Part shown: piece after piece, positions 8,433 to 55,012 of the stretch
Layout: each line of letters begins with the position of its first letter
How positions within the stretch are numbered: position 1 is the stretch's first letter
Source of the DNA: Squalus acanthias
Taxonomy: Eukaryota
Assembly: GCA_030390025.1 (NCBI GenBank)
Contig: CM059432.1
Coordinates: 248,001 to 312,000, forward strand
Length of the DNA: 64,000 bases
Reading direction: 5' to 3'
The notes under the pieces: model-generated
Databases searched by the model: none
Told to the model about the DNA's origin: nothing
What the model saw: the letters and a program-made list of their open reading frames with translations, nothing else
Made by a program: the position numbers and the translations under genes

Positions 8433-8467
8433 CATTCTCTGACAGGAACATCCTGCCCCCCCGAACT

Positions 8468-8659
8468 AAACCTCTCACCATGAGCGTTCCCATCCCCCTT
8501 CACTAGTTGCCAAACCTGCCGCTCCTACACACGGCACTCTCCTGCACTTGAGTTTTCTTCCATATAAGGTATGGAATGCAGAGAGTACCTGCTGTTTACG
8601 CTGGGATAGGCTCCTGCCCTCGGGGCTCTCTCCGTGTATCAATGCCTTCCTACCTCGCT
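8468..8659 (-). promoter_or_regulatory. Conserved MCAT+CArG module, copy 1 (candidate SRF/TEAD enhancer)
   Basis: CCATATAAGG at 8560-8569 and TGGAATG at 8572-8578; gap-free homology to 39573-39765 and 54836-55012. Confidence 0.65.
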
Positions 8660-24963: not shown

Positions 24964-25968
<1,005 letters not shown>

Positions 25969-26204
25969 CTAGAATGGGGAATAAAACAAAGGATGAAACA
26001 TGCCATCAGGAGTTAGAGGAGACCGACTCAAAATTATACAATGGTACAGCACAGAAGGAGGCCACTACTACTGAATCTGTAGCCACCATCCTTCCACAAA
26101 AAAGGTTTTTCCTCCCTCCTGTCACATCTGGTTCTTTTGCCAATGACCTTATATCTGTGCCCTCTGGTCATTGACCCCTCAGCCAACTTTTTTTTTTTAA
26201 AGTT

Positions 26205-26360
26205 ATATAAATGCAGCGAGTTGTGGTGATCTGGAACACGCTGCCTGAAAGGGTGGTGGAAGCAGATTCAAAATAACTTGCAAAAAGGGGAATTGGATAA
26301 ATGAGAAAAAATTCTCATGGCTATGGGGGAAGAGCAGAGGAGTGAGATTAATTGAATAGC
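26205..26360 (+). mobile_element. CR1 3' fragment in the actin intron
   Basis: TCTGGAACACGCTGCCTGAAAGGGTGGTGGAAGCAG matches other CR1 ends in the window. Confidence 0.65.
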
Positions 26361-28065: not shown

Positions 28066-28516
28066 TCAGAAATTTACAGCACAGGAGGAGGCCATTCAGC
28101 CCAGCGTGTCTGTGCTGGCCAACGAGGAGCTATCCAGCCTAATCCCACTTTCCAGCTCTTGGTCCACAGCCCTGTAAGTTACAACACTTCAAGTGTCTAT
28201 CCAAGTACTTTCAGGCAGTGAGTTCCAGACCCCAACACCCTTTGGGTGAAAAAAAAGTTTAACTCCCATCCAATCCTTCTACCAATTACTTTAAATCTAT
28301 GCACCCTGGTTATCAACCCTGCTGCTCAGGGAAATAAGTCCTTCTATCCACTCAATCAAGACCTCAATTTTATACACCTCAGTTAAATCTCCCCTCAGCC
28401 TCCTCTGTTCCAAAGAAAACAAACCCAGCCTATCATCATAGCTAAAATTCTCCAGTCCTGGGAACATCCTCAAATCTCCTCTGCACCCTCTCTAGTGCAA
28501 TCACATCTTTCTTGTA
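28066..28516 (-). mobile_element. CR1 3' fragment in the actin intron
   Basis: Homologous to 38775-39247 and 55093-55717. Confidence 0.8.
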
Positions 28517-28790
28517 AACACACCTCACATTTGACACAGAACAATTGGATCCAACACCCAGCAAAACACACAGCTCCCATCACCAAATGGTGCAACTGAA
28601 GTTGACCAGGGAGAGTTAGCAACTGCACTCCCTCCCCCCACAACCACAGCACTCCCTCCCACCCCAGGGAGCAGGCTTCATTCTGGCAGCAGTCTCATCA
28701 GAACAGCTCCAGCCCAGAGAGATCAATCCCAGCCCTTCAAGCAAGCAGTTTAACAAAGCCTGCATTCAAATCTTTTGAGGGAAGGAGCTA

Positions 28791-28988
<198 letters not shown>

Positions 28989-29099: not shown

Positions 29100-29320
29100 T
29101 CTACCTTCTAACAGAGAATGTATTCCAACTCCTGATCCCAGGCTGCACCTACACAACCCAGTGCCCCCACCTCACCCCTTATAGAGCACCAGGCTCCACC
29201 CACATTCCTATCACATGAGTCAGCCCACCAATGAGATTTAGGGGCAGGAGCCAAAACCAGCCACTGAGGCTCAGGGGGCGGAGTTCAGTCCAATCACAGG
29301 GAGAGAACCCAATCATTCAA
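29100..29320 (-). promoter_or_regulatory. Probable actin promoter and short non-coding exon 1
   Basis: TATAAG 29178-29183 (minus), MCAT CATTCCT 29203-29209, AP-1 TGAGTCA 29216-29222, CCAAT at 29228, 29290 and 29309, GC box 29275-29283; polypyrimidine acceptor near 29009-29030. Confidence 0.65.
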
Positions 29321-33469: not shown

Positions 33470-36400
33470 GACCTCAGGATGTCTCAAAGGGCTTTACAGC
33501 TAATATTGAACTTTCTGTGATATATAAAATGCAGAAGCCAATTTGCGCACAGCAAGCTCCCACAAACAGCAATGTGATCGTGACCAGATCAGCTGTTTTA
33601 GTGATGGACACTGGGGAAAAATGCCCCAGCTCTTCTTTGAATAATGCTGTGGGACCATTTTACCAATGATCTTAAATATCTATCAAATTGCCCATATTCT
33701 AAGTGAGAGGGCAGACGGGGCCTCAGTTTAAAGTCTCATCCGAAAGACGACACCTCTGACAGTGCGGCGCTCCCTCAGTACTGCTCCTCCGACAGTGCAG
33801 CGCTCCCTCAGTACTGCCCCTCCGACAGTGCAGCACTCCCTCAATACTGCCCCTCCGACAGTGCGGCGCTCCCTCAGTACTGCCCCTCCGACAGTGCGGC
33901 GCTCCCTCAGTACTGCCCCTCCGACAGTGCGGCGCTCCCTCAGTACTGCCCCTCCGACAGAGCGGCGCTCCCTCAATACTGCCCCTCCGACAGTGCGGCG
34001 CTCCCTCAGTACTGCCCCCCCGACAGTGCAGCACTCCCTCAGTACTGCCCCTCCGACAGTGCAGCACTCCCTCAGTACTGCCCCTCCGACAGTGCAGCGC
34101 TCCCTCAGTACTGCCCCTCAGACAGTGCAGCACTCCCTCAGTACTGCCCCTCCGACAGTGCAGCACTCCCTCAGTACTGCCCCTCCGACAGTTCAGTGCT
34201 CCCTCAGTACTGACCCTCTGACAGTGCAGCACTCCCTCAGTACTGCTCCTCCGACAGTGCGGCTCTCCCTCAGTACTTCCCCTCCGACAGTGCAGTGCTC
34301 CCTCAGTACTGCCCCTCCGACAGTGCGGCGCTCCCTCAGTACTGCCCCTCCGACAGTGCCATGCTCCCTCAGTACTGCCCCTCCGACAGTGTAGCACTCA
34401 CTCAGTACTGACCCTCCGACAGTGCAGCACTCCCTCAGTACTGCCCCTCCGACAGTGCAGCACTCACTCAGTACTGACCCTCCGACAGTGCAGCGCTCCC
34501 TCAGTACTGCCCCTCCGACAGTGCAGTGCTCCCTCAGTACTGACCCTCTGACAGTGCAGCGCTTCCTCAGTACCGCCCCTCCGACAGTGCGGCGCTCCCT
34601 CAGTACAGCCCCTCCGACAGTTCAGTGCTCCCTCAGTACTGACCCTCTGAGAGTGCAGCACTCCCTCAGTACTGCCCCTCCGACAGTGCGGCTCTCCCTC
34701 AGTACTGCCCCTCCGACAGTGCGGCGCTCCCTCAGTACTGCCCCTCCGACAGTGCGGCGCTCCCTCAGTACTGCCCCTCTGACAGTGCAGCGCTCCTTCA
34801 GTACTGCCCCTCCGATAGTGCAGCGCTCCTTTAGTACTGCCCCTCCGACAGTGCAGCGCTCCCTCAGTACTGCCCCTCCGACAGTGCGGCTCTCCCTCAG
34901 TACCGCCCCTCCGACAGTGCGGCGCTCCCTCAGTACTGCCCCTCCGACAGTGCGGCGCTCCCTCAGTACTGCCCCTCCAACAGTGCGGCTCTCCCTCAGT
35001 ACAGCCCCTCCGACAGTGCTGCGCTCCCTCAGTACTGCCCCTCCGACAGTGCGGCGCTCCCTCAGTACCGCCCCTCCGACAGTGCGGCGCTCCCTCAGTG
35101 CCGCCCCTCCGACAGTGCGGCGCTCCCTCAGTACTGCCCCTCCGACAGTGTGGCGCTCCCTCAGTACCGCCCCTCCGACAGTGCGGCGCTCCCTCAGTAC
35201 TGCCCCTCCGACAGTGCGGTGCTCCCTCAGTACTGCCCCTCCGACAGTGCGGCGCTCCCTCAGTACCGCCCCTCCGACAGTGCGGCGCTCCCTCAGTACT
35301 GACCCTCTGACAGTGCAGCACTCCCTCAGTACTGCCCCTCCGACAGTGCGGCGCTCCCTCAGTACCGCCCCTCCGACAGTGCGGCGCTCCCTCAGTACTG
35401 CCCCTCCGACAGTGCAGCGCTCCTTCAGTACTGCTCCTCTGACAGTGCAGCACTCCCTCAGTACTGCCCCTCCGACAGTGCGGGGCTCCCTCAGTACTGC
35501 CCCTCCGACAGTGCGGCTCTCCCTCAGAACCGCCCCTCCGACAGTGCGGCACTCCCTCAGTACTGCCCCTCCGACAGTGCCATGCTCCCTCAGTACTGCC
35601 CCTCCGACAGTGTAGCACTCACTCAGTACTGACCCTCCGACAGTGCAGCACTCCCTCAGTACTGCCCCTCCGACAGTGCAGCACTCACTCAGTACTGACC
35701 CTCCGACAGTGCAGCGCTCCCTCAGTACTGCCCCTCCGACAGTGCAGTGCTCCCTCAGTACTGACCCTCTGACAGTGCAGCGCTTCCTCAGTACCGCCCC
35801 TCCGACAGTGCGGCGCTCCCTCAGTACAGCCCCTCCGACAGTTCAGTGCTCCCTCAGTACTGACCCTCTGAGAGTGCAGCACTCCCTCAGTACTGCCCCT
35901 CCGACAGTGCGGCTCTCCCTCAGTACTGCCCCTCCGACAGTGCGGCGCTCCCTCAGTACTGCCCCTCCGACAGTGCGGCGCTCCCTCAGTACTGCCCCTC
36001 TGACAGTGCAGCGCTCCTTCAGTACTGCCCCTCCGATAGTGCAGCGCTCCTTTAGTACTGCCCCTCCGACAGTGCAGCGCTCCCTCAGTACTGCCCCTCC
36101 GACAGTGCGGCTCTCCCTCAGTACCGCCCCTCCGACAGTGCGGCGCTCCCTCAGTACTGCCCCTCCGACAGTGCGGCGCTCCCTCAGTACTGCCCCTCCA
36201 ACAGTGCGGCTCTCCCTCAGTACAGCCCCTCCGACAGTGCTGCGCTCCCTCAGTACTGCCCCTCCGACAGTGCGGCGCTCCCTCAGTACCGCCCCTCCGA
36301 CAGTGCGGCGCTCCCTCAGTGCCGCCCCTCCGACAGTGCGGCGCTCCCTCAGTACTGCCCCTCCGACAGTGTGGCGCTCCCTCAGTACCGCCCCTCCGAC

Positions 36401-38441
36401 AGTGCGGCGCTCCCTCAGTACTGCCCCTCCGACAGTGCGGTGCTCCCTCAGTACTGCCCCTCCGACAGTGCGGCGCTCCCTCAGTACCGCCCCTCCGACA
36501 GTGCGGCGCTCCCTCAGTACTGACCCTCTGACAGTGCAGCACTCCCTCAGTACTGCCCCTCCGACAGTGCGGCGCTCCCTCAGTACCGCCCCTCCGACAG
36601 TGCGGCGCTCCCTCAGTACTGCCCCTCCGACAGTGCAGCGCTCCTTCAGTACTGCTCCTCTGACAGTGCAGCACTCCCTCAGTACTGCCCCTCCGACAGT
36701 GCGGGGCTCCCTCAGTACTGCCCCTCCGACAGTGCGGCTCTCCCTCAGAACCGCCCCTCCGACAGTGCGGCACTCCCTCAGTACTGCCCCTCCGACAGTG
36801 CCATGCTCCCTCAGTACTGCCCCTCCGACAGTGTAGCACTCACTCAGTACTGACCCTCCGACAGTGCAGCACTCCCTCAGTACTGCCCCTCCGACAGTGC
36901 AGCACTCACTCAGTACTGACCCTCCGACAGTGCAGCGCTCCCTCAGTACTGCCCCTCCGACAGTGCAGTGCTCCCTCAGTACTGACCCTCTGACAGTGCA
37001 GCGCTTCCTCAGTACCGCCCCTCCGACAGTGCGGCGCTCCCTCAGTACAGCCCCTCCGACAGTTCAGTGCTCCCTCAGTACTGACCCTCTGAGAGTGCAG
37101 CACTCCCTCAGTACTGCCCCTCCGACAGTGCGGCTCTCCCTCAGTACTGCCCCTCCGACAGTGCGGCGCTCCCTCAGTACTGCCCCTCCGACAGTGCGGC
37201 GCTCCCTCAGTACTGCCCCTCTGACAGTGCAGCGCTCCTTCAGTACTGCCCCTCCGATAGTGCAGCGCTCCTTTAGTACTGCCCCTCCGACAGTGCAGCG
37301 CTCCCTCAGTACTGCCCCTCCGACAGTGCGGCTCTCCCTCAGTACCGCCCCTCCGACAGTGCGGCGCTCCCTCAGTACTGCCCCTCCGACAGTGCGGCGC
37401 TCCCTCAGTACTGCCCCTCCAACAGTGCGGCTCTCCCTCAGTACAGCCCCTCCGACAGTGCTGCGCTCCCTCAGTACTGCCCCTCCGACAGTGCGGCGCT
37501 CCCTCAGTACCGCCCCTCCGACAGTGCGGCGCTCCCTCAGTGCCGCCCCTCCGACAGTGCGGCGCTCCCTCAGTACTGCCCCTCCGACAGTGTGGCGCTC
37601 CCTCAGTACCGCCCCTCCGACAGTGCGGCGCTCCCTCAGTACTGCCCCTCCGACAGTGCGGTGCTCCCTCAGTACTGCCCCTCCGACAGTGCGGCGCTCC
37701 CTCAGTACCGCCCCTCCGACAGTGCGGCGCTCCCTCAGTACTGACCCTCTGACAGTGCAGCACTCCCTCAGTACTGCCCCTCCGACAGTGCGGCGCTCCC
37801 TCAGTACCGCCCCTCCGACAGTGCGGCGCTCCCTCAGTACTGCCCCTCCGACAGTGCAGCGCTCCTTCAGTACTGCTCCTCTGACAGTGCAGCACTCCCT
37901 CAGTACTGCCCCTCCGACAGTGCGGGGCTCCCTCAGTACTGCCCCTCCGACAGTGCGGCTCTCCCTCAGAACCGCCCCTCCGACAGTGCGGCACTCCCTC
38001 AGTACTGCCCCTCCGACAGTGCGGCGCTCCCTCAGTACTGCCCCTCCGACAGTGCAGCTCTCCCTCAGTACCGCCCCTCCGACAGTGCGGCGCTCCCTCA
38101 GTACCGCCCCTCCGACAGTGCGGCGCTCCCTCAGTACCGCCCCTCCGACAGTGCGGCGCTCCCTCAGTACCACCCCTCCGACAGTGCGGCGCTCCCTCAG
38201 TACCGCCCCTCCGACAGTGCGGCGCTCCCTCAGTACTGCCCCTCCGACAGTGCGGCACTCCCTCAGTACCGCCCCTCCGACAGTGCGGCGCTCCCTCAGT
38301 ACTGCCCCTCCGACAGTGCGGCACTCCCTCAGTACTGCACTGGAAGTCAGCCTAGGTTAAGGGCCCAAGTCTCTGGAGTGGGACTTGAACCCACGACCTT
38401 CTAACTCAGAGATGAGAGAGCTGCCCACTGGGCCACGGCTG
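33470..38441 (-). mobile_element. Deu-domain SINE inflated to ~5 kb by an internal minisatellite
   Basis: tRNA-like head 38375-38441 (B box GGTTCAAGTCC on minus); Deu domain and tail at 33470-33755. Confidence 0.85.
33754..38338. repeat. 33-bp minisatellite (~139 units) containing three 1221-bp (37-unit) higher-order repeats at ~34331-38022
   Basis: The marker variant GCCATGCTCC recurs at 34358, 35579 and 36800; translated ORFs repeat at a 1221 offset. Confidence 0.97.
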
Positions 38442-39572: not shown

Positions 39573-39765
39573 GTGAGATGGGAAGGCGAGTTGTCACACG
39601 GAGAGAGCCCCGAGGGCAGGAGCCTGTCCCAGCGTAAGCTGCAGGTACACTCGGCATTCCATACCTTATATGGAAGAAAACTCAAGCACAGGAGGGTGCC
39701 GTGTGTAGGAGCGGCAGACGGTGCAATCAGTGAAGGGGGATGGGAACGCTCGCGGGGTGAGGTTT
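39573..39765 (+). promoter_or_regulatory. Conserved MCAT+CArG module, copy 2
   Basis: CATTCCA 39655-39661, CCTTATATGG 39664-39673; AP-1 TGAGTCA immediately upstream at 39566-39572. Confidence 0.65.
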
Positions 39766-39836
39766 ATTTTCTGGGGAATCTGGAGGGAGAGGGAAGCATG
39801 GCTCTTCCCAGAACATGGCGATTCTGTCCACACATT

Positions 39837-40960: not shown

Positions 40961-42916
40961 ACGACTTTGATAATCTAAGTGAGAGGACAAAACCGTGGCA
41001 AATGGTGATGTCATCCACTTTGGACCTAAGAAAGATCGATCAGAGAATTTTCTAAATGGTGAGAAGCAGGAACCGTGGAGGAGCCGAGAGATTGAGGGGT
41101 CCAAATACAGAAATCACTGGAAGCTGGTGGACAGGTACAAAAATAATCAAAAAGGCGAATGGAATGTTGGCCTTTATCTCAGGGGCGGGAATACAACGGG
41201 TTGGAAGTGATGCTTCAGCTGTACAGAGCTCTGGTTAGACCTGTAAGCTTCACAAAATTCCCCAGATACTCGTATAGAACCCTAAAAGGGGTGATTTTTG
41301 GATTTTTCCTACAAATTTGGGATGATGGGACATAAGTGAAGTGATTTGAGGCAAAAACCTCAGCTTTGGAAATTTTAAAGATCAGGGAAGAAAAACCCTG
41401 AGAAAAAAATGACTTTTGAAAATGACTATGGGAAAAAAAACACCTTTGCGAAGGGGTGTGGCGAGGCAGTGGACAGCTTTTGGTGTCAAGCTGTCTGGAA
41501 TTTGTTTGCACTGCAATCCAGGCAGGAGGAAGAACCTCACCCAAAACCTCACAACACATCCAAAATTGAATAATTCAAGACACCTTTTGAATATCCCCAG
41601 GCCCAAACAGGATGCCAGAAGCCTGTAAACAATAAAACATCTAGTACAGCCATTACTTCATGAAAAACCAATCAGCCAGGTATCTATAGGGACAAGATTT
41701 GGCGCGTAGATAAAGGCCCTGCCTAAATGGGAGACATCGGAAGCCATCAGGACAATTTAACACCAAGTTAAACCCATCAAAACTTAACAAGCCCGCAAAA
41801 CTAAGACAATGGAATGAACAGGCCTCAACTGAAACCTAAATCACTTCAACACGAAACCGATTTAGTAAGGGGTTTTGGCGCGAAAGGGTCTGAACAGTAT
41901 AATTGAGGACCTAATCCCCCAAGAAAGTCTCTCTCAGCTCTGTTCCAGTTGCAGCAAGTTCCAGCAAGACACTACCAGCCACACGACACGAGCAGGAGGA
42001 GGAGAGAAGCAGCAAGGCCACGAGGCAGACCCGGGGTGAGATCGGAGGCAAGGACAGACTAGGCCAGGCAAGGGCTAGAGCTGAGGCCACTGGGAGCGAG
42101 TCGGCATCGCTCAGCACACGGTCTAGCACTAGCAGCCACTAGCCAAGGTCACTGGAGGCTGGGAGCGAGTCGGCATCGCTCAACGCACGGTCCAGCCCCA
42201 GAAGGTACCGCCCCGACAAGCCTCCAACGCAACAAAACTCGACGACCAGACCACCATCGCAGATTTCACAGACCGGTACCACGTGGGGACGGCAGGCCCC
42301 AAAGGACAAAAAGAGAGTACCTCAAAAATCGGAATCAACTTACCTGGCTGGATTTTGCACTGTCAAAACCCCTGTTTGGTGAGCATTATCCCTGATCTCC
42401 TGAAACCAAAACCTAGCTAGATAGTGGGAATTTTTGGGAGGGATAAGGGTTTTTGTATATTGTCTTTCTCCCTCGCCTGTACCGTGTGTTCTCCAACCTG
42501 TTTAAGTGTTAAGTGTGTTTTAAGTTTGTTACTTTTTCTCTTAATAAAAGTCAAAATTCTTTCATCGGAACCTGTTGTCTACTGCATCTTTATTCACAAC
42601 CCCTAAATAAGTCCAAGGTCTAGAACCAGGGGCGTGGGAGCGATTCGAACTGCTCACTGAGTCAGAGGTGAGGCTGACCCTTACCACACCACCCCCTACA
42701 GACCCCCGTCTGCAGTAACTGGGTTCAGTTCTGGGCCCCGCACCTCAGGAAGGATATATTGGCCTTGGAGGGGGAGCAGCGCAGATTCACCAGAATGATA
42801 CCAGGGCTGAAAGGGTTAAATGTTGAGGACAGGCTGCACAGACTGGGCTTGTATTCCCTTGAGTATAGAAGATTAAGGGGTGAACTGATTGAGGTGTTTA
42901 AGATGATGAAAGGAGT
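40961..42916 (+). mobile_element. Decayed CR1 copy split by the solo LTR (40961-41241 and 42701-42916)
   Basis: Paralogous to the uninterrupted copy at 54130-54795. Confidence 0.85.
41242..42700 (+). mobile_element. Solo LTR, 1459 bp, of an LTR retrotransposon or ERV
   Basis: TGTA...TACA termini; perfect 4-bp TSD GACC (41238-41241, 42701-42704); AATAAA at 42543-42548; empty site in the paralog at ~44250-44275. Confidence 0.85.
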
Positions 42917-44467
42917 TTTTTCAATATTCGTTCATGGGATGTGGACGTCGCTGGCAAGGCCAGCATTTATTGCCCATCCCTAATTGCCCTCGAGAAGGTG
43001 GTGGTGAGCCGCCTTCTTGAACCGCTGCAGTCCGTGTGGTGAAGGTACTCCCACAGTGCTGTTAGGGAGGGAGTTCCAAGAATTTGACCCAGCAACGATG
43101 AAGGAACGGCGATATACATCCAAGTCAGGGTGGTGTGTGACTTGGAGGGGAACTTGGAGGTGGTGGTGTTCCCATGCGCCTGCTGCCCTTGTCCTTCTAG
43201 GTGGTAGAGGTCGCGGGTTTGGGAGGTGCTGCCAAAGAAGCCTTGGCAAGTTGCTGCAGTGCATCTTGTAGATGGTACACACTGCAGCCACGGTAGACCA
43301 ACAAGCGAGCATCTAACCACCGTCCCTTGACATTCAACGGCATTACCATCGCCGAATCCCCCACCATCAATGTCCTGGGAAGGTCACCATTGACCAGAAA
43401 CTTAACTGGACCAGCCACATAAATACTGTGGCAACAAGAGCAAGTCAGAGGCTGGGTATTCTGTCACGAGTGTCTCACCTCCTGACTCCCCAAAGCCTTG
43501 CCACCATCTACAAGGCACAAGTAAGGAGTGTGATGGAATACTTTCCACTTGCCTGGATGAGTGCAGCTCCAACAACACTCAAGAAGCTCGACACCATCCA
43601 AGACAATGCAGCCCGTTTGATTGGCCCCCCATCCACTACCTTAAACATTCACTCCCTCCACCACCGGTGTACTGTGGCTACAGTGTGTACCATCTACAAG
43701 ATGCACTGCAGCAACTCACCAAGGCTTCTTCGGCAGCACCTCCCAAACCCGCGACCTCTACCACCTAGAAGGACAAGGGCAGCAGGCACATGGGAACACC
43801 ACCACCTCCAAGTTCCCCTCCAAGTCACACACCATCCTGACTTGGAAATATATCGTCGTTCCTTCATCGTCGCTGGGTCAAAATCCTGGAACTCCCTCCC
43901 TAACAGCACTGTGGGAGAAACTTCACCACACGGACTGCAGCGGTTCAAGAAGGCGACTCACCACCACCTTCTCAAGGGCAATTAGGGATGGGCAATAAAT
44001 GCTGGCCTTGCCAGCGACGTCAACATCCCATGAACGAATATTGAAAAAAATCCTTTCATCATCTTAAACACCTCAATCAGTTCACCCCTTACTCTTCTAT
44101 ACTCAAGGGAATACGAGCCTTGTCTGTGCAGCCTGTCCTCATCATTTAACCCTTTCTGCCCCGGTATCATTCTGGTGAATCTGCGCTGCTCCCCCTCCAA
44201 GGCCAATATATCCTTCCTGAGATGCGGGGCCCAGAACTGAACCCAGTGACTGCAGACGGGGGTCTAACCAGAGCTTTGTACAGCTGAAGCATCACTTCCT
44301 CCCCATTGTATTCCCGCCCCCGAGATAAAGGCCAACATTCCATTAGCCTGTTTGATTGCTTTTTCTACATGTCCACAGGCGAGAAATTCTCGTGGGGTTT
44401 TTTTTTTGTTTAAACTGGAGGTGACGTACTCACCTGAATCAGCCTGAAATGATTGGGCTCCTTTTCG

Positions 44468-44822
44468 GGAGATGCTGGATTTCTCAATTCATGCGTTCTC
44501 CGAGCAAGGCCTCAGGGAATCGGCCCTGAGGTGTCACCACAAATCCTGTGGTAGGTGAGAAACATTGTTGAGATGCTGGTGTTCTGATTGTCGAGTTGTT
44601 GGCGCTCTTGACCCAGTCGGACACTTCCTGCTGTCGAACCACATGAGTCAGACACTCCGACTGACTAATGGAGATCGTCAGCAGGAAGTGTTCCATTGGG
44701 ACAAGAGCAATTCTCCAATCGGAATGCCAGCATCTCGACAAGGTTCGTCACCTCCAAAAGGGTTTGTGTTGACACTGAACCTTAAACCAGGAGCTTGACT
44801 TGTAGTTGAGTCAGTAATCTCC
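44468..44822 (+). other. Long imperfect palindrome (core 44531-44775), copy 1
   Basis: Arms pair by hand over ~115 bp around the 9-nt loop ACACTCCGA. Confidence 0.85.
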
Positions 44823-47800
44823 AAGCTCTGTTGTGTTTTTAAATCTAATATAAACAAGGAACCATGGATAACATGACAGATTTGGCATATTTGCGTGTAT
44901 ATGTATGTGCGTGTGCATGTCTGTATGTGCATAGCAACATAGGAACAGAAGGAGGCCATTCAGCCCCTCGAGCCTGTTCCACCATTCAATTAGATCACGG
45001 CTGATCTGTATCTAAACTCCATCTACCCGCCTTGGTTCCGTGTCCCTTAATACCCTTACCCAACAAAAATCTTTCAATCTCAGTTTTGAAATTTTCAATT
45101 GACCCCCAGCCTCAACAGCTTTTTGGGGGAGAGAGTTCCAGATTTCCACTACCCTTTGTGTGAAGTGCTTCCTGACATCACCCCTGAACGGCCTGGCTCT
45201 AATTTGAGGGTTATGGCCCCTTGTTCTGGACTCCCCCCCCCCCCCGCCCACCAGAGGAAATAGTTTCTCTCTATCCACCCTATCAAGAGGAACAAGGGCA
45301 CAGAATGTACTCTGGGTGGCGGACTTCAATTTCCATCACCAAGAGTGGCTCGGTAGCACCACTACGGACCATGCTGGCCAAGTCCTGAAGGACATAGCTG
45401 CCAGTCTGGGCCTGCGACAGGTGGTGAGAGAACCAACACAAGGGAAAAACCTACTTGACCTCGTCCTCACCAATCTACGTGTCGCAGATGCATCTGTCCA
45501 TTACAGTATTGGTAGAAGTGACCACCGCACAGTCATTGTGGAGACAAAGTCCCATCTTCACACTGAGGACACCCTCCATCGTGTTGTGTGGCACTACCAC
45601 CGTGCTAAATGGGATAGATTCAGAACAGATCTAGCAGCTCAAAACTGGGCATCTATGAGACACTGTGGGCCATCAGCAGCAGCAGCAGAATTGTATTCCA
45701 CCACAATCTGTAACCTCATGGCCCGGCATATCCCTCACTCTACCATTACCATCAAGCCAGGGGCCAACCCTGGTTCAATAAGGAGTGTGGAAGAGCATGC
45801 CAGGAGCAGCACCAGGCATACCTAAAAATGCAGTGCCAACCTTTGGAAGCTGCAACACAGGACTACATACATGCTAAAAAGCAGAAGCAGCATGCTATAG
45901 ACAGAGCTAAGAGATCCAACAATCAACGGATCAGATCAAAGCTCTGCAGTCTTGCCACATCTAGTCATGAAGGGTGGTGGACCATTAAACCAATGGGAGG
46001 AGGAGGTTCCATGAATATATTTTTTTAAATTTGATTTTATGGGACGTGGGCGTTGCTGGCAAGGCCAGCATTTATTGCCCATCCCTAATTGCCCTTGAGA
46101 AGGTGGTGGTGAGACGCCTTCTTGAACCGCTGCAGTCCGTGTGGTGACGGTGCTTCCACAGTGCTGTTAGGGAGGGAGTTCCAGGAGTTTGACCCAGCGA
46201 CGATGAAGGAACGGCGATATACTTCCAAGTCAGGATGGTGTGTGACTTGGAGGGGAACTTGGAGGTGGTGGGGTTCCCATGCACCTGCTGCCCTTGTCCT
46301 TCTAGGTGGAAGAGGTCGCGGGTTTGGGAGGTGCTGCCGAAGAAGCCTTGGCAAGTTGCTGCAGTGCATCTTGTAGATGGTACACACTGCAGCCACGGTG
46401 CGCCAGTGGTGGAGGCAGTGAATGTTTAAGGTGGTGGATGGGGTGCCGATCAAGCGGGCTGCTTTGTCCTGGATGGTGTCGAGCTTCTTGAGTGTTGTTG
46501 GAGCTGCAACCATCCAGGCAAGTGGAGAGTATTCCATCACACTCCTGACTTGTGCCTTGTAGATGGTGGTAATTAGGGATGGGCAATTCATGCTGGCCTT
46601 GCCAGCGATGCCCACATCCTCAATGATGGTGGAGCCCAGCACATGAGTGCAAAAGACAAGGCTGAAGCGTTTGCAACCATCTTCAGCCAGAAGTGCCGAG
46701 TGGATGATCCATATCGGCCTCCTCGCGAGGTCCCCACCACCACAGAAGCCAGTCTTCTGCCAATTAGATTCACTCCACGTGATATCAAGAAACGGCTGGG
46801 CGCACTGGATACAACAACGCTATGGGCCCCGACAACATCCCGGCTATCGCGCTGAAGACTTGTGCTCCAGAACTAGCCACACTTCTAGCCAAGCTGTTCC
46901 AGTACAGCTACAACACTGGCATCTAATCGACAATCTGGAAAACTGCCCAGGTATGCCCTGTCCACAACCTCCAGGCCTCATTACAGCCTTGGTCCAAAGG
47001 AGCTGAATTCCAGAGATGAAGTGAGAGTGACTGCCCTTGACATCAAGGCAGCAATTTGACCGAGTGTGGCATCAAGGAGCCCTAGTAAAACTGAAGTCAA
47101 TGGGAATCGGGGGTAAACGCTCCACTGGTTGGAGTCATACCTAGCACAAAGGAAGATGGTTGTGGTGGTTGGAGGTTAATCATCACAGCCCCAGGACATT
47201 GCTGCAGGAGTTCTTCAGTGCAGTGTCCTCGGCCCAACCATCATCAATGACCTTCCCTCCATCATAAGGTCAGAAATGGGGATGTTCGCTGATGACTGCA
47301 CAGTGTTCAGCGCCATTCGCAACTCCTCAGGTAAGGAAGCAGTCCATGCTCGCATGCAGCAAGACCTGGACGACATTCAGGCTTGGGCTGATAAGTGACA
47401 GGTAACATTCGCGCCACACAAGTGCCAGGCAATGACTATCTCCAACAAGCGAGCGTCTAACCACCTCCCCTTGACATTCAATGGCATTACCATCGCTGAA
47501 TCCCCCACCATCAATATCCTGGGGGTCACCATTGACCAGAAACTTAACTGGACCAGCCACATAAATACTGTGGCAACAAGAGCAAGTCAGAGGCTGGGTA
47601 TTCTGTCACGAGTGTCTCACCTCCTGACTCCCCAAAGCCTTGCCACCATCTACAAGGCACAAGTAAGGAGTGTGATGGAATACTCTCCACCTGCCTGGAT
47701 GAGTGCAGCTCCAACAACACTCAAGAAGCTCGACACCATCCAGGACAAAACAGCCCGCTTGATTGGCCCCCCATCCACCACCTTAAACATTCACTCCCTC

Positions 47801-47847
47801 CACCACCGGTGTACCGTGGCTGCCTGAAATGATTGGGCTCCTTTTCG

Positions 47848-48202
47848 GGAGATGCTGGATTTCTCAATCCATGCGTTCTCCGAGCAAGGCCTCAGGGAAT
47901 CGGCCCTGAGGTGTCACCACAAATCCTGTGGTAGGTGAGAAACATTGTTGAGATGCTGGTGTTCTGATTGTCGAGTTGTTGGCGCTCTTGACCCAGTCGG
48001 ACACTTCCTGCTGTCGAACCACATGAGTCAGACACTCCGACTGACTAATGGAGATCGTCAGCAGGAAGTGTTCCATTGGGACAAGAGCAATTCTCCAATC
48101 GGAATGCCAGCATCTCGACAAGGTTCGTCACCTCCAAAAGGGTTTGTGTTGACACTGAACCTTAAACCAGGAGCTTGACTTGTAGTTGAGTCAGTAATCT
48201 CC
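47848..48202 (+). other. Long imperfect palindrome, copy 2
   Basis: Near-identical to copy 1 at offset 3380. Confidence 0.85.
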
Positions 48203-51200
48203 AAGCTCTGTTGTGTTTTTAAATCTAATATAAACAAGGAACCATGGATAACATGACAGATTTGGCATATTTGCGTGTATATGTATGTGCGTGTGCATGT
48301 CTGTATGTGCATAGCAACATAGGAACAGAAGGAGGCCATTCAGCCCCTCGAGCCTGTTCCACCATTCAATTAGATCACGGCTGATCTGTATCTAAACTCC
48401 ATCTACCCGCCTTGGTTCCGTGTCCCTTAATACCCTTACCCAACAAAAATCTTTCAATCTCAGTTTTGAAATTTTCAATTGACCCCCAGCCTCAACAGCT
48501 TTTTGGGGGAGAGAGTTCCAGATTTCCACTACCCTTTGTGTGAAGTGCTTCCTGACATCACCCCTGAACGGCCTGGCTCTAATTTGAGGGTTATGGCCCC
48601 TTGTTCTGGACTCCCCCCACCCCCCCCCCCCCCCACCAGAGGAAATAGTTTCTCTCTATCCACCCTATCAAGAGGAACAAGGGCACAGAATGTACTCTGG
48701 GTGGCGGACTTCAATTTCCATCACCAAGAGTGGCTCGGTAGCACCACTACGGACCATGCTGGCCAAGTCCTGAAGGACATAGCTGCCAGTCTGGGCCTGC
48801 GACAGGTGGTGAGAGAACCAACACAAGGGAAAAACCTACTTGACCTCGTCCTCACCAATCTACGTGTCGCAGATGCATCTGTCCATTACAGTATTGGTAG
48901 AAGTGACCACCGCACAGTCATTGTGGAGACAAAGTCCCATCTTCACACTGAGGACACCCTCCATCGTGTTGTGTGGCACTACCACCGTGCTAAATGGGAT
49001 AGATTCAGAACAGATCTAGCAGCTCAAAACTGGGCATCTATGAGACACTGTGGGCCATCAGCAGCAGCAGCAGAATTGTATTCCACCACAATCTGTAACC
49101 TCATGGCCCGGCATATCCCTCACTCTACCATTACCATCAAGCCAGGGGCCAACCCTGGTTCAATAAGGAGTGTGGAAGAGCATGCCAGGAGCAGCACCAG
49201 GCATACCTAAAAATGCAGTGCCAACCTTTGGAAGCTGCAACACAGGACTACATACATGCTAAAAAGCAGAAGCAGCATGCTATAGACAGAGCTAAGAGAT
49301 CCAACAATCAACGGATCAGATCAAAGCTCTGCAGTCTTGCCACATCTAGTCATGAAGGGTGGTGGACCATTAAACCAATGGGAGGAGGAGGTTCCATGAA
49401 TATATTTTTTTAAATTTGATTTTATGGGACGTGGGCGTTGCTGGCAAGGCCAGCATTTATTGCCCATCCCTAATTGCCCTTGAGAAGGTGGTGGTGAGAC
49501 GCCTTCTTGAACCGCTGCAGTCCGTGTGGTGACGGTGCTTCCACAGTGCTGTTAGGGAGGGAGTTCCAGGAGTTTGACCCAGCGACGATGAAGGAACGGC
49601 GATATACTTCCAAGTCAGGATGGTGTGTGACTTGGAGGGGAACTTGGAGGTGGTGGGGTTCCCATGCACCTGCTGCCCTTGTCCTTCTAGGTGGAAGAGG
49701 TCGCGGGTTTGGGAGGTGCTGCCGAAGAAGCCTTGGCAAGTTGCTGCAGTGCATCTTGTAGATGGTACACACTGCAGCCACGGTGCGCCAGTGGTGGAGG
49801 CAGTGAATGTTTAAGGTGGTGGATGGGGTGCCGATCAAGCGGGCTGCTTTGTCCTGGATGGTGTCGAGCTTCTTGAGTGTTGTTGGAGCTGCAACCATCC
49901 AGGCAAGTGGAGAGTATTCCATCACACTCCTGACTTGTGCCTTGTAGATGGTGGTAATTAGGGATGGGCAATTCATGCTGGCCTTGCCAGCGATGCCCAC
50001 ATCCTCAATGATGGTGGAGCCCAGCACATGAGTGCAAAAGACAAGGCTGAAGCGTTTGCAACCATCTTCAGCCAGAAGTGCCGAGTGGATGATCCATATC
50101 GGCCTCCTCGCGAGGTCCCCACCACCACAGAAGCCAGTCTTCTGCCAATTAGATTCACTCCACGTGATATCAAGAAACGGCTGGGTGCACTGGATACAAC
50201 AACGCTATGGGCCCCGACAACATCCCGGCTATCGCGCTGAAGACTTGTGCTCCAGAACTAGCCACACTTCTAGCCAAGCTGTTCCAGTACAGCTACAACA
50301 CTGGCATCTAATCGACAATCTGGAAAACTGCCCAGGTATGCCCTGTCCACAACCTCCAGGCCTCATTACAGCCTTGGTCCAAAGGAGCTGAATTCCAGAG
50401 ATGAAGTGAGAGTGACTGCCCTTGACATCAAGGCAGCAATTTGACCGAGTGTGGCATCAAGGAGCCCTAGTAAAACTGAAGTCAATGGGAATCGGGGGTA
50501 AACGCTCCACTGGTTGGAGTCATACCTAGCACAAAGGAAGATGGTTGTGGTGGTTGGAGGTTAATCATCACAGCCCCAGGACATTGCTGCAGGAGTTCTT
50601 CAGTGCAGTGTCCTCGGCCCAACCATCATCAATGACCTTCCCTCCATCATAAGGTCAGAAATGGGGATGTTCGCTGATGACTGCACAGTGTTCAGCGCCA
50701 TTCGCAACTCCTCAGGTAAGGAAGCAGTCCATGCTCGCATGCAGCAAGACCTGGACGACATTCAGGCTTGGGCTGATAAGTGACAGGTAACATTCGCGCC
50801 ACACAAGTGCCAGGCAATGACTATCTCCAACAAGCGAGCGTCTAACCACCTCCCCTTGACATTCAATGGCATTACCATCGCTGAATCCCCCACCATCAAT
50901 ATCCTGGGGGTCACCATTGACCAGAAACTTAACTGGACCAGCCACATAAATACTGTGGCAACAAGAGCAAGTCAGAGGCTGGGTATTCTGTCACGAGTGT
51001 CTCACCTCCTGACTCCCCAAAGCCTTGCCACCATCTACAAGGCACAAGTAAGGAGTGTGATGGAATACTCTCCACCTGCCTGGATGAGTGCAGCTCCAAC
51101 AACACTCAAGAAGCTCGACACCATCCAGGACAAAACAGCCCGCTTGATTGGCCCCCCATCCACCACCTTAAACATTCACTCCCTCCACCACCGGTGTACC

Positions 51201-51994
51201 GTGGCTGCAGTGTATACCATCTACAAGATGCACTGCAGCAACTCGCCAAGGCTTCTTCGACAGCACCTCCCAAACCCTCGACCTCTTCCACCTAGAAGGA
51301 CAAGGGCAGCAGGCACATGGGAACACCACCACCTCCAAGTTCCCCTCCAAGTCACACACCATCCTGACTTGGAAATATATCGCCGTTCCTTCATCATCGC
51401 TGGGTCAAAATCTTGGAACTCCCTCCCTAACAGCACTGTGGGAGAAACTTCACCACACGGACTGCAGCGGTTCAAGAAGGCGGCTCACCACCACCTTCTC
51501 AACGGCAATTAGGGATGGGCAATAAATGCTGGCCTTGCCAGCGACGTCAACATCCCATGAACAAATATTGAAAAAAATCCTTTCATCATCTTAAACACCT
51601 CAATCAGTTCACCCCTTACTCTTCTATACTCAAGGGAATACGAGCCTTGTCTGTGCAGCCTGTCCTCATCATTTAACCCTTTCTGCCCCGGTATCATTCT
51701 GGTGAATCTGCGATGCTCCCCCTCCAAGGCCAATATATCCTTCCTGAGATGCGGGGCCCAGAACTGAACCCAGTGACTGCGGACGGGGGTCTAACCAGAG
51801 CTTTGTACAGCTGAAGTATCACTTCCTCCCCATTGTATTCCCGCCCCCGAGATAAAGGCCAACATTCCATTAGCCTGTTTGATTGCTTTTTCTACATGTC
51901 CACAGGCGAGAGATTCTCGTGGGGTTTTTTTTTTGTTTAAACTGGAGGTGACGCACTCACCTGAATCAGCCTGAAATGATTGGGCTCCTTTTCG

Positions 51995-52349
51995 GGAGAT
52001 GCTGGATTTCTCAATCCATGCGTTCTCCGAGCAAGGCCTCAGGGAATCGGCCCTGAGGTGTCACCACAAATCCTGTGGTAGGTGAGAAACATTGTTGAGA
52101 TGCTGGTGTTCCGATTGTCGAATTGCTGGCGCGCTTGACCCAGTCGGACACTTCCTGCTGTCGAACCACATGAGTCAGACACTCCGACTGACTAATGGAG
52201 ATCGTCAGCAGGAAGTGTTCCATTGGGACAAGAGCAATTCTCCAATCGGAATGCCAGCATCTCGACAAGGTTCGTCACCTCCAAAAGGGTTTGTGTTGAA
52301 ACTGAACCTTAAACCAGGAGCTTGACTTGTAGTTGAGTCAGTAATCTCC
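51995..52349 (+). other. Long imperfect palindrome, copy 3
   Basis: Offset 7527 from copy 1, with a few substitutions. Confidence 0.85.
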
Positions 52350-53555
52350 AAGCTCTGTTGTGTTTTTAAATCTAATATAAACAAGGAATCATGGATAACA
52401 TGACAGATTTGGCATATTTGCGTGTATATGTATGTGCGTGTGCGTGTCTGTATGTGCATAGCAACATAGGAACAGAAGGAGGCCATTCAGCCCCTCGAGC
52501 CTGTTCCACCATTCAATTAGATCACGGCTGATCTGTACCTTAACTCCATCTACCCGCCTTGGTTCCGTGTCCCTTAATACCCTTACCCAACAAAAATCTT
52601 TCAATCTCAGTTTTGAAATTTTCAATTGACCCCCAGCCTCAACAGCTTTTTGGGGGAGAGAGTTCCAGATTTCCACTACCCTTTGTGTGAAGTGCTTCCT
52701 GACATCACCCCTGAACGGCCTGGCTCTAATTTGAGGGTTATGGCCCCTTGTTCTGGACTCCCCCCCCCCCCCGCCCACCAGAGGAAATAGTTTCTCTCTA
52801 TCCACCCTATCAAGAGGAACAAGGGCACAGAATGTACTCTGGGTGGCGGACTTCAATATCCATCACCAAGAGTGGCTCGGTAGCACCACTACGGACCATG
52901 CTGGCCAAGTCCTGAAGGACACAGCTGCCAGTCTGGGCCTGCGACAGGTGGTGAGAGAACCAACACAAGGGAAAAACCTACTTGACCTCGTCCTCACCAA
53001 TCTACGTGTCGCAGATGCATCTGTCCATGACAGTATTGGTAGAAGTGACCACCGCACAGTCATTGTGGAGACAATGTCCCGTCTTCGCACTGAGGACACC
53101 CTCCATCGTGTTGTGTGGCACTACCACCATGCTAAATGGGATAGATTCAGAACAGATCTAGCAGCTCAAAACTGGGCATCTATGAGACACTGTGGGCCAT
53201 CAGCAGCAGCAGCAGAATTGTATTCCACCACAATCTGTAACCTCATGGCCCGGCATATCCCTCACTCTACCATTTCCATCAAGCCAGGGGCCAACCTTGG
53301 TTCAATAAGGAGTGTAGAAGAGCATGCCAGGAGCAGCACCAGGCATACCTAAAAATGCAGTGCCAACCTTTGGAAGCTGCAACACAGGACTACATACATG
53401 CTAAAAAGCGGAAGCAGCATGCTATAGACAGAGCTAAGTGATCCCACAATCAACGGATCAGATCAAAGCTCTGCAGTCCTGCCACATCTAGTCATGAAGG
53501 GTGGTGGACCATTAAACTAATGGGAGGAGGAGGTTCCATGAATATATTTTTTTAA

Positions 53556-54133
53556 ATTTGATTTTATGGGATGTGGGCGTCACTGGCAAGGCCAGCATTT
53601 ATTGCCCATCCCTAATTGCCCTTGAGAAGGTGGTGGTGAGACGCCTTCTTGAACCGCTGCAGTCCGTGTGGTGAAGGTGCTCCCACAGTGCTGTTAGGGA
53701 GGGAGCTCCAGGATTTTGACCCAGCGACGATGAAGGATCGCCGATATATTTCCAAGTCAGCATGGTGTGTGACTTGGAGGGGAACTTGGAGGTGGTGGTG
53801 TTCCCATGCGCCTGCTGCCCTTCGGCAGCACCTCCCAAACCCGTGACCTCTGCCACCTAGAAAGACAAGGGCAGCAGGCGCATGGGAACACCACCACCTC
53901 CAAGTTCCCCTCCAAGTCACACACCACCCTGACTTGGAAGTATATCGCCGATCCTTCATCGTCGCTGGTTCAAAATCCTGGAACTCCCTCCCTAACAGCA
54001 TTGTGGGAGTACCTTCACCACACGGACTGCAGCGGTTCAAGAAGGCAGCTCACCACCACCTTCTAAAGGGCAATTAGGGATGGGCAATAAATGCTGGCCT
54101 TGCCAGCGACGCCCACATCCCATAAAATCAAAT
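53556..54133. repeat. Fold-back inverted repeat of a LINE-B 3' end (arms ~267 bp, spacer ~43 bp)
   Basis: ATTTGATTTTATGGGATGTGGGCGT at the left end and ACGCCCACATCCCATAAAATCAAAT at the right end. Confidence 0.9.
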
Positions 54134-54795
54134 CACTGGAAGCTGGTGGACAGATGCAAAAAATAATCAAAAGGGTGAATGGAATGTTGGCCTTTATCTC
54201 AGGGGCGGGATTACAAAGGGGAGGAAGTGATGCTTCAGCTGTACAGAGCTCTGGTTAGACCCCAATCGAGTAACTGGGTTCAGTTCTGGGCCCCGCACCT
54301 CAGGAAGGATATAATGGCCTTGGAGGGGGAGCAGCGCAGATTCACCAGAATGATACCAGGGCTGAAAGGGTTAAATTACGAGGACAGGTTGCACAGACTA
54401 GGCTTGTATTCCCTCGAGTGTAGAAGATTAAGGGGTGATCTAATCGAGGTGTTTAAGATGATGAAAGGAGTTGATCAGGTAGAGAGAGAGAAACTATTTC
54501 CTCTGGTGGGGGGAGTCCAGAACAAGGGGGCATCACCTTAAAATTAGAGCCAGGCCGTTCAGGGGTGATGTCAGGAAGCACTTCTTCACACAAAGGGTGG
54601 TGGAAATCTGGAACTCTCTCCCCCATAAAAGCTGTCGAGGCTGGGGGGTCAATTGGAGCTTTCAAGACTGAGATCGATAGGTTTTGGTTGTGTGAGGGAT
54701 TATGGAGCCAAGGCGGGTAAATGGAGTTAAGGTGCAGATCAGCCATTGAATGGCGGAACAGGCTCAAGGGACCGAACGGCCAATTGATGTTCCTG
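54130..54795 (+). mobile_element. CR1 3' portion, uninterrupted paralog of the CR1 in the duplicated unit
   Basis: ORF 54179-54541; lacks both the LTR and the LINE-B insertions. Confidence 0.88.
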
Positions 54796-54835
54796 TGCTC
54801 GTGAAGTGGCTGGTGATTGCTCTCTCCTAGCAAAA

Positions 54836-55012
54836 AAACCTCTCCCCGCGAGCGTTCCCATCCCCCTTCACTGATTGCACCGTCTGCCGCTCCTACACAC
54901 GGCACCCTCCTGTGCTTGAGTTTTCTTCCATATAAGGTATGGAATGCCGAGTGTACCTGCAGCTTACGCTGGGACAGGCTCCTGCCCCGAGGCGCTCTCA
55001 GTGTAGCAACTT
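54836..55012 (-). promoter_or_regulatory. Conserved MCAT+CArG module, copy 3
   Basis: CCATATAAGG 54928-54937, TGGAATG 54940-54946; 54844-54987 is the exact reverse complement of 39614-39757. Confidence 0.65.

Follow-up and report, generated by a model that had tools for sequence, protein, structure and literature searches.

Long-hairpin RNA (hpRNA) loci yield small interfering RNAs of endogenous origin (endo-siRNAs) in Drosophila, in plants and in mouse oocytes. Several of the Eulor/UCON repeats are palindromic, the hammerhead core reads CUGANGA ... GAAA, and viroid-like RNAs are comparable in size and rod shape to the locus described here. This locus, an imperfect palindrome (the rod) in a 64,000-nt stretch of Squalus acanthias DNA, the whole of which is termed the window, resembles hpRNA loci in its more than 100 imperfect pairs, its transcript-like size, its one-strand G.U lean and its recent local duplication. 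It differs from them in that two-sided compensation is absent and pairs have been lost in both lineages, and it is known from DNA alone.

Four other described systems bear comparison. Made1, which is linked to the hsa-mir-548 family, is an 80-bp element with 7,850 annotated human copies and a known mariner parent (Piriyapongsa and Jordan, 2007, PMC1784062). The rod is likewise nearly wholly palindromic with a spacer of a few bases and a hairpin on either strand, but it is 245 bp long and single-locus at a likeness of at least 80%, and it has no clear target-site duplication, parent or known small RNA. Canonical primary microRNAs have an optimal stem of 36 +/- 3 nt, with loops of at least 10 nt favoured (Roden et al., 2017, PMC5340965); the rod shares the imperfect stem with wobbles and 1x1 mismatches, yet its ~115 opposed pairs and its loop of 5-9 nt lie outside those ranges, and it matches no known family (Rfam; one supplement of PMC3789328). 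Eulor/UCON repeats are ancient, low-copy vertebrate repeats, some of which proved to be non-autonomous DNA transposons (Kojima, 2018, PMC5753468). The rod, likened to them by description only, is also old, low-copy, non-coding and hard to classify, but is not conserved above its flanks. Penelope-like elements include fold-back insertions with hammerheads (PMC11167929), whereas the rod is a single locus without a hammerhead core with GAAA, a reverse transcriptase or a GIY-YIG remnant.

Shape and predicted fold of the rod

The structural features are as follows (A to D are the organisms in whose contigs the rod was found).

44531-44775, + strand: rod copy 1, imperfect palindrome of 245 nt
47911-48155, + strand: rod copy 2, identical to copy 1
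52058-52302, + strand: rod copy 3, differing from copy 1 at 5 positions
44510-44531, + strand: side hairpin, unconserved, with 2 of its 8 pairs disrupted in C/D
44700-44704, + strand: 5 stem bases, an indel, present in the window, A and B, missing in C and D
44622-44630 and 44682-44690: mirrored ETS-type 9-mers, CACTTCCTG and CAGGAAGTG, unchanged in three genome-scale contig runs (X3, X7 and X8)
44644-44650 and 44662-44668: AP-1-type sites, TGAGTCA and TGACTAA

The palindrome and its copies, first recognised by a sequence-only reading, were confirmed, copies 2 and 3 lying at offsets of +3380 and +7527 from copy 1. Copy 1 contains 92-93 Watson-Crick pairs, 8 G.T and 2-3 A.C oppositions and 12-16 transversion-type mismatches, the ranges depending on the register, together with a 6-nt bulge in the left arm and a terminal loop of 5-9 nt. 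Of the 245 sites, 230 are opposed (~115 pairs), and the longest unbroken helix spans 26 bp (44565-44590 with 44716-44741). A long imperfect intramolecular duplex is predicted: the comparison with shuffled controls that the sequence-only reading had proposed for both strands gave z of -12.2 on the + strand and -10.2 on the - strand, with 0/100 shuffles as stable on either, and the - strand fold is 28 kcal/mol weaker than the + strand fold. A weaker extension to 44468-44822 with a side hairpin, also proposed earlier, did not hold up, being absent from the MFE fold. Outside the rod, 11 of the 15 differences in organism C break predicted pairs, 2 of the 8 in the side hairpin among them. The side structures are broken in C. 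A multi-domain RNA with side hairpins was considered and rejected.

The 9-mers, which we take to be ETS-type motifs, and the AP-1-type sites are present where they had been reported; such mirrored pairs are automatic in any palindrome. The chance that the 18 positions of the two 9-mers would all remain unchanged at 7.3% divergence is ~0.26 (hand arithmetic), and the perfect AP-1-type site carries T instead of G at 44645 in C/D.

Copies, island and LINE surroundings

The rod lies in a non-LINE segment (the island), itself set in LINE debris.

44377-44930 (554 bp): non-LINE island with rod copy 1
47822-48310: island copy 2, first 65 bp missing, cut by the 3,380-bp duplication junction
51904-52457: island copy 3, 98.2% to copy 1
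44442-51208: very recent tandem duplication with a 3,380-bp period (44442-47823 vs 47822-51208, 99.76%)
43298-53822: older duplication of ~3.0 kb (43298-46295 vs 50827-53822, 97.6%)
44048-44376, - strand: LINE fragment, one half, left of the island, 89% to 54146-54472
44938-45286, - strand: LINE fragment, adjoining other half, right of the island, 80.5% to 54471-54797
45208-45825, + strand: LINE endonuclease remnant (Pfam Exo_endo_phos_2, E 1.7e-10)
42700-43299, - strand: inverted copy of 43666-44265, 95%, left edge of the duplicated block
53556-54133: LINE-derived fold-back palindrome, arms 89.5%, right edge of the duplicated block

Two nested events replace the single 4.1-kb duplicated unit that had been assumed: the 3,380-bp tandem duplication, whose halves differ by 3 substitutions and one 5-nt indel in a C run, sits inside the older 97.6% duplication, with 4,147 bp between copies 2 and 3. 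The 3,380-bp duplication may be a true copy-number variant (CNV) or an assembly duplicate. Three copies are indeed present, but with copies 1 and 2 identical over the whole rod they count as two independent ones, not three. The differences of copy 3 (in copy-1 numbering) fall at 44585, 44595, 44599, 44606 and 44773, and at 44585 and 44599 copy 3 has the state common to organisms B, C and D.

As had been claimed of the non-LINE segment, the island matches nothing else in the window beyond its own copies and one 25-nt chance match. From the permuted order of the two LINE halves beside it we infer a head-to-tail unit, and the endonuclease remnant belongs to a second LINE that split the first. The same LINE junction recurs without the island at 42700-43299, and two more cases of fold-back occur elsewhere in the duplicated block. 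The rod was copied, as proposed, but the suggested amplification is better described as passive carriage, the duplications taking along 3-4 kb of LINE debris. The CpG o/e is 0.62 in the island vs 0.21-0.45 elsewhere. A repeat scan of the whole window is dominated by satellites. An intact actin gene with two coding exons (24964-28985, - strand) lies 15 kb from the rod, with a promoter-like region near 29.2 kb (read by eye), and a consensus splice donor is found at 44436 on the - strand.

Family, RNA and protein searches

No Rfam family reached its gathering score in the window; the 6 matches up to E 10 are all far below, the best miRNA match scoring 28.4 bits vs a gathering score of 180, and none of the 6 is a ribozyme family. 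The tRNA scan returned 0. Pfam searches of 5 reading frames across the island gave nothing at cut-off and 2 weak matches under it; any reading frame through the rod is broken by the 5-nt deletion in C/D. None of six 10-mers (0/6) occurs in one supplement of PMC3789328, four 12-letter arm motifs returned no fish RNA among the literature matches listed, and the two-arm pattern had 0 matches in viral contigs. One metagenome contig did match this pattern and was dismissed as chance: the match is a perfect inverted repeat of bacterial origin at the end of the contig, and BLAST shows no similarity between it and the window. Neither arm has a target-like match elsewhere in the window. Matches to Pol III boxes are loose and in the wrong order, and no run of 4 T occurs between 44466 and 44835.

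The rod has the palindromic, terminal-inverted-repeat, non-coding character of a MITE. Its ends carry no TA, TTAA or 8-bp repeat, the sole candidate target-site duplication being TGA with a 1-nt offset (by eye), although an old duplication could have decayed. Many dispersed copies were not found at a likeness of at least 80% in any of the three genome-scale runs (3/3), each of which has one contig layer of flat depth over the rod. Records on the island region number 21, 34 and 22 in X3, X7 and X8, and all the extra records among those listed sit on a TG repeat (44885-44933) outside the rod. This single layer argues against a young high-copy MITE, an alternative raised earlier. Contig depths of 22.6, 19 and 7.8 were not taken as copy numbers, and the lack of copy-3 alleles in X3 contigs says nothing on triplication there, as contigs drop rare variants. 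In a further run (X6; 126 million letters, depth 2; low-pass DNA or RNA) positions 44631-44666 are uncovered.

Orthologues and rate of change

The rod was found in contigs of four organisms, C and D forming an outgroup pair, with single contig layers over the island in the A, C and D runs and, in B, two pieces that do not overlap. The rod differs from C at 18/245 sites (7.3%) vs 18/227 (7.9%) for the island flanks (Fisher p 0.86), the flanks being a short yardstick of neutrality that is possibly constrained itself. The longest unchanged run, 41 nt, is as expected by chance (p 0.47). Among the 18 differences between A and C/D there are 0 Watson-Crick-to-Watson-Crick double changes, at a shallow divergence depth, and the only opposed pair that differs on both sides (44559/44747) is mismatched in both. 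Watson-Crick pairs number 101 in the inferred ancestor, 93 in copy 1 and 96 in C/D, which also have the 5-nt stem deletion; pairs were lost in both lineages, transversion breaks included. Pair-breaking changes make up 6/18 vs 10.3 expected under a neutral model (p 0.037), a deficit whose p becomes 0.07-0.13 if transitions are 70-80% of changes.

Copy 3 had been credited with repairing wobbles. One case, G44595>A, stands as the only true stepwise compensation (44595/44711: G-C to G.T to A-T), whereas TTCTGATT/TTCCGATT is the ancestral state.

Balance of G.T and A.C oppositions

The argument that neutral decay of a palindrome should yield G.T and A.C about equally is sound, and the counts first given for copy 1 were reproduced in the + strand fold (8 G.T, 2 A.C; p 0.11). 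In a strand-neutral alignment, G.T:A.C is 8:3 (p 0.23) for copy 1 and 6:3 for copy 3. The claimed G.U bias keeps its direction when species are added, with 11:4 over all lineages (p 0.12) vs symmetric duplicated LINE flanks as control (18:19 and 27:29). Depending on the counting rule, lineage-specific events lie between 6:2 (p 0.29) and 9:0 (p 0.004), and with the handling of ambiguous sites p for the lean spans 0.004-0.30. A lineage tally of 8:0 (p 0.008) was dropped, because neither 44599 nor 44757 pairs in the register given by RNAfold and 44653 borders the loop; 44559/44747 and 44618 add A.C cases to the tally. An excess of transversion-type old mismatches was likewise dropped as register-dependent (p 0.04-0.42).

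CpG dinucleotides hold 4 of the 8 G.T of copy 1 (44569, 44580, 44581 and 44585). As the C at 44585 is common to copy 3, B, C and D, a CpG C>T change removed it from copies 1 and 2. In the part of the island beyond the rod, polarised transitions have a lean in the same direction, 6:1 (p 0.125), or 5:2 with 44917 read otherwise.

Origin and alternative explanations

The rod is one locus in four organisms, with pairs lost in both lineages, no covariation and CpG decay. We favour, at a probability of about one half, the reading that it is an old one-off fold-back that evolves near neutrality, was duplicated passively and has no function needing pairing. A single fold-back (inverted) duplication of ~120 bp around a 5-9 bp spacer would have produced the palindrome, probably by template switch or a retroelement-linked fold-back, and erosion at about the flank rate, with CpG decay, would have followed. 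If neutral, its age would be ~3x the A vs C/D split, as the arms differ at 27/119 columns and the orthologues at 18/245. The three copies would be passive products of unequal exchange between the LINE fragments on either side, and the G.T lean would mostly be small-number chance on top of methyl-C deamination. What we count against near-neutrality is the 11:4 lean beside symmetric LINE flanks and the pair-breaking deficit, and also the compensation at 44595/44711 and the 28 kcal/mol advantage of the + strand fold.

Since the lean keeps its direction with added species against a symmetric control, a long-hairpin RNA read from the + strand, subject to weak purifying selection and diced to endo-siRNAs or ADAR-edited, is a possibility to which we give some weight, though we doubt it. 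The 115-pair rod would be transcribed by Pol II, or by Pol III from ~44467 to a T5 run at 44836; G.U-creating changes would be tolerated, and A.C and transversion breaks partly purged. The 11:4 vs 18:19 contrast, the deficit of disruptive changes (p 0.037-0.13), the stepwise compensation in copy 3, the orthologous locus across four organisms, the T4-free stretch 44466-44835 and a perfect helix of 26 bp, below the 33 bp for PKR activation (PMC7930956), all point this way. They are opposed by a rate equal to that of the flanks, the 0 Watson-Crick double changes, the deletion of 5 nt from the C/D stem and the transversion breaks seen in each lineage, a lean that is not significant under conservative counting, unconserved side hairpins, and the lack of an Rfam family or of a target-like match in the window. 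Of the long-hairpin RNA first suggested, the long imperfect fold thus holds, but two-sided covariation and a drop in rate do not appear. A fuller version, a shark-lineage single-locus + strand hpRNA gene, born by fold-back, under G.U-tolerant selection, siRNA- or ADAR-processed in somatic or germ cells and with CNV by local duplication, we regard as rather doubtful. The rod could also be what remains of an ancient palindromic DNA transposon, non-autonomous and low in copy number (MITE, Eulor/UCON-like), decaying neutrally, with sisters less than 80% alike. This is unlikely given one contig layer over the rod in X3, X7 and X8 and the end sequences, even though it is like Made1-type MITEs in its size, its almost complete palindromy and its short spacer (PMC1784062), the terminal 16 bp are complementary except at 44537 and 44544, both paired in C/D, and a neutral clock would put sister copies at ~77%, just below the 80% floor.

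Cis-regulatory DNA, as an enhancer or promoter that contains two ETS sites and may serve the actin gene 15 kb away, would explain the lean differently: transcription with the + strand as non-template would add C>T and A>G and mimic a G.U bias. The unchanged ETS-type 9-mers, the higher CpG o/e of the island, the same-way transition lean outside the rod (6:1 or 5:2), the intact actin gene and the splice donor at 44436 (both - strand) are consistent with it. Mirrored motifs are automatic in a palindrome, however, and the lack of change in the 9-mers has a chance of ~0.26; the AP-1-type site is altered in C/D, rod CpG sites are being lost, LINE DNA beside the island is symmetric and the actin gene comes with a promoter-like region of its own, so that we hold this to be quite improbable. 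Origin as an endogenised RNA (viroid-like, retrozyme or Penelope hammerhead) or as the terminal hairpin of a virus is close to refuted. Size and rod shape would fit, and one CTGACGA occurs on the - strand at 44681, but it has no GAAA after the stem, the + strand near-core is altered at 44531, 44537 and 44559 in C/D (by eye), no ribozyme is among the 6 Rfam matches, viral contigs gave 0 matches, and a tail and target duplication are lacking.

Implications

As a decaying palindrome, the rod matters little beyond the lesson of its G.U lean, which in that case shows how small counts and CpG decay can yield a G.U bias. If the RNA reading were true, endogenous RNAi outside mouse oocytes would be testable at one locus. 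A jawed vertebrate that has an interferon system, a setting in which long duplexes are normally a liability (PMC7930956), would then possess a conserved locus of hpRNA type, the vertebrate equivalent of such loci in flies.

Sequence setting and local duplication

The window is repeat-rich animal DNA with tandem arrays of 18-, 33- and 42-bp units; it also contains reverse-transcriptase and endonuclease remnants and one actin gene. The imperfect palindrome studied here (the rod) lies in a 554-bp non-LINE segment (the island, 44377-44930), which sits between permuted halves of one LINE fragment and whose sole matches within the window are its own copies. Self-comparison of the window located the palindrome at 44531-44775, where it matches its reverse complement at 73%, and placed two further copies, in agreement with the three described in the sequence-only reading.

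44531-44775, rod copy 1
47911-48155, rod copy 2
52058-52302, rod copy 3
42700-43299, inverted copy at the block edge
53556-54133, LINE fold-back at the block edge

Copies 1 and 2 are identical and lie within a 3,380-bp tandem duplication, whose units differ by three substitutions and a single 5-nt indel; an older duplication (43298-46295 against 50827-53822, 97.6%) contains copies 1 and 3. The duplication of the island was passive, and LINE-mediated unequal exchange probably carried it along.

Other features of the window

The 18-bp unit (469 copies, 4-8433) is probably a satellite; a minus-strand frame with S/R/G/V hexapeptide repeats (5450-8524) is open over 1,024 codons. Within the 33-bp satellite, three successive 1,221-bp blocks (37 units; 34395-37900) are 100% identical and, like the 3,380-bp duplication, reflect either higher-order amplification of very recent date or duplication in the assembly. 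An inverted 782-nt pair (15345-16126 and 21314-22095; 98%, 5.2 kb apart) is another recent local inversion-duplication, and a 175-187 nt repeat (39589-39775, 54826-55011, 8468-8642) borders on tandem arrays in two of the three positions where it occurs. The GC-rich element at ~10163-10935, single-copy in the window, has a stronger fold than that of the rod. Its short inverted repeats at the termini (GGGG..AAAATT type), AAAG-like flanks and several internal palindromes give it the look of a non-autonomous DNA transposon. A solo-LTR-like element of ~1.46 kb (41242-42700; TGT start, ACA end, 4-5 bp target duplication AGACC/GACC) is inserted in a LINE fragment. The minus-strand actin gene (24964-28985; Pfam Actin, E 2e-131), which we take to be cytoplasmic-like from its protein start, looks intact with just two coding exons (28985-28860, 25968-24964) and a GT-AG intron; more coding introns are usual in vertebrate actin genes. 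TATA- and CCAAT-like motifs were seen by eye around 29180-29320.

Folding of the rod

When both strands of 44440-44850 were folded against shuffled controls, as had been proposed from sequence, none of 100 shuffles was as stable as the plus strand (-203.3 kcal/mol, z -12.2) or the minus strand (-175.4 kcal/mol, z -10.2). Equally strong local hairpins occur in the window at 10150-10600 and 53650. The plus-strand fold of copy 1 contains 93 Watson-Crick pairs, 8 G.T oppositions (G.U wobbles in plus-strand RNA) and 2 A.C, reproducing the earlier hand count. Alignment without a G.T bonus gave 92 Watson-Crick, 8 G.T, 3 A.C and 16 transversion-type mismatches for copy 1, and 93, 6, 3 and 17, respectively, for copy 3. 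The G.T:A.C ratio of copy 1 has p 0.11 at 8:2 and p 0.23 at 8:3.

Orthologues in related organisms

Nine of the 12 listed sequencing runs, from four studies, contain part of the island. Contigs at 80% likeness were compared from X3, X6, X7 and X8 (organisms A, B, C and D; three studies), with C and D, which show 3 listed differences, counted as a single outgroup. X3, X7 and X8 each yielded one contig across the rod (627-629 nt) with flanks matching at their readable ends, and X6 covered the region in two non-overlapping pieces; the rod is thus orthologous at a single locus. The remaining records, among those listed, fall on a TG repeat (44885-44933), and depth is flat over the rod. Since only one contig layer covers the rod, a young dispersed family is absent at 80% likeness or more, and a young high-copy MITE is not supported. 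X3 is identical to copy 1 in the rod, with 7 listed differences outside it; those at 44828-44829 are common to C/D but absent from B, a pattern that does not fit a simple tree. A small hairpin-forming palindrome (44419-44436) overlaps a consensus minus-strand splice donor, unchanged in C/D; no exon was identified upstream of it.

Pair conservation and the G.U lean

Divergence of the rod from C (18/245 sites) is similar to that of its flanks (18/227; p 0.86). If every pair with Watson-Crick status in at least one lineage is counted as ancestral, and 44559/44747 is added on grounds of parsimony, the total comes to 101 pairs, of which copy 1 retains 93 and C/D 96; pairs have been lost in both lineages, and five stem bases are deleted in C/D. 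Between copy 1 and C/D there are no Watson-Crick to Watson-Crick double changes; one opposition changed on both sides and is mismatched in both. The proposed wobble repair in copy 3 holds at 44595/44711, the sole stepwise compensation (G-C in B, C and D; G.T in copies 1, 2 and X3; A-T in copy 3), and fails at 44585; there, and at 44599, the C of copy 3 is also the state in B, C and D, so that the decay was in copies 1 and 2. Pair-breaking changes in copy 3, also anticipated, are found at 44773 and, in one bulge register only, at 44606. Of the 15 differences in C that lie beyond the rod, 11 disrupt predicted pairs, 3 make G.T and 1 is unpaired; the side hairpin and weaker extension are therefore not conserved structures.

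All oppositions in copy 1 or C/D number 11 G.T and 4 A.C (p 0.12; Fisher against control 0.13). Lineage-specific events give 9:0 (p 0.004) on the most generous count and 6:1 (0.125) or 6:2 (0.29) on strict ones. In the control, the LINE flanks that were duplicated with the island, polarised transitions stand at 18:19 (polarity was assigned to 53 of 69 differences, with island sites and 6 unpolarised ones excluded), and a wider, overlapping LINE-copy set at 27:29; this symmetry means that region-wide strand bias does not explain the lean. The island outside the rod leans likewise (6:1, p 0.125, or 5:2), which makes local mutational asymmetry indistinguishable from selection on structure. CpG sites hold 4 of the 8 wobbles of copy 1. 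Changes that disrupt pairing (A.C or a transversion where the site is paired, the 5-nt deletion being outside this count) number 6/18 against 10.3 expected (p 0.037; 0.068-0.128 at a higher transition share).

Known families and the origin of the rod

No Rfam family reached its gathering score anywhere in the window (best match in 43500-46000: MIR5998, 28.4 bits against 180), and no Pfam family reached its cut-off in 5 reading frames across the island. No account of the rod turned up in literature listings or in one supplement to the study of bamboo-shark miRNAs (PMC3789328), a scope without miRBase/MirGeneDB, Dfam, Repbase, subscription papers or bioRxiv supplements, which may matter. The one metagenome match was a bacterial palindrome with no relation to the window: a perfect inverted repeat of ~110 bp (contig L001, 1910-2159, reaching the contig end). 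It lies 3' of a tRNA-like segment and a small unit of two genes, and is probably a fold-back made in assembly.

The rod stem is ~3x the pri-miRNA optimum of 36 +/- 3 nt (PMC5340965), and its longest unbroken helix, 26 bp, is shorter than the PKR minimum duplex of 33 bp (PMC7930956). Made1 MITEs (80 bp, 7,850 copies; PMC1784062) are its closest structural analogue, although the rod is longer and without a young dispersed family; the Eulor/UCON repeats in PMC5753468 are described without sequence for comparison. We consider an ancient low-copy MITE relic quite unlikely. A viroid-like relic or one of a Penelope element, whose hammerhead is described in PMC11167929, seems highly improbable: no hammerhead core was found at the locus and the viral contig search gave no match to the rod. 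A putative regulatory element with transcription-linked asymmetry, with which the lean outside the rod would agree, is very unlikely. A candidate plus-strand long-hairpin RNA under weak selection is favoured by the G.U lean and the scarcity of disruptive changes, a weak and partly post hoc argument; however, with no covariation and no drop in rate against the flanks, we regard it as doubtful. Because one defining feature of each failed, the rod is not classed as an hpRNA, MITE or pri-miRNA.

We contend, at a probability of about one half, that the rod is a one-off fold-back palindrome, since eroded and carried through two local duplications. A 120-bp segment would have been copied back on itself once, presumably before A/B split from C/D; early mismatches would have given the palindrome stability, and single-base changes, decay at CpG sites and short indels would later have eroded it, the eroding palindrome then being carried by the two duplications. 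Such a rod would lack function; should it act at all, its mode of action may be hpRNA-like.
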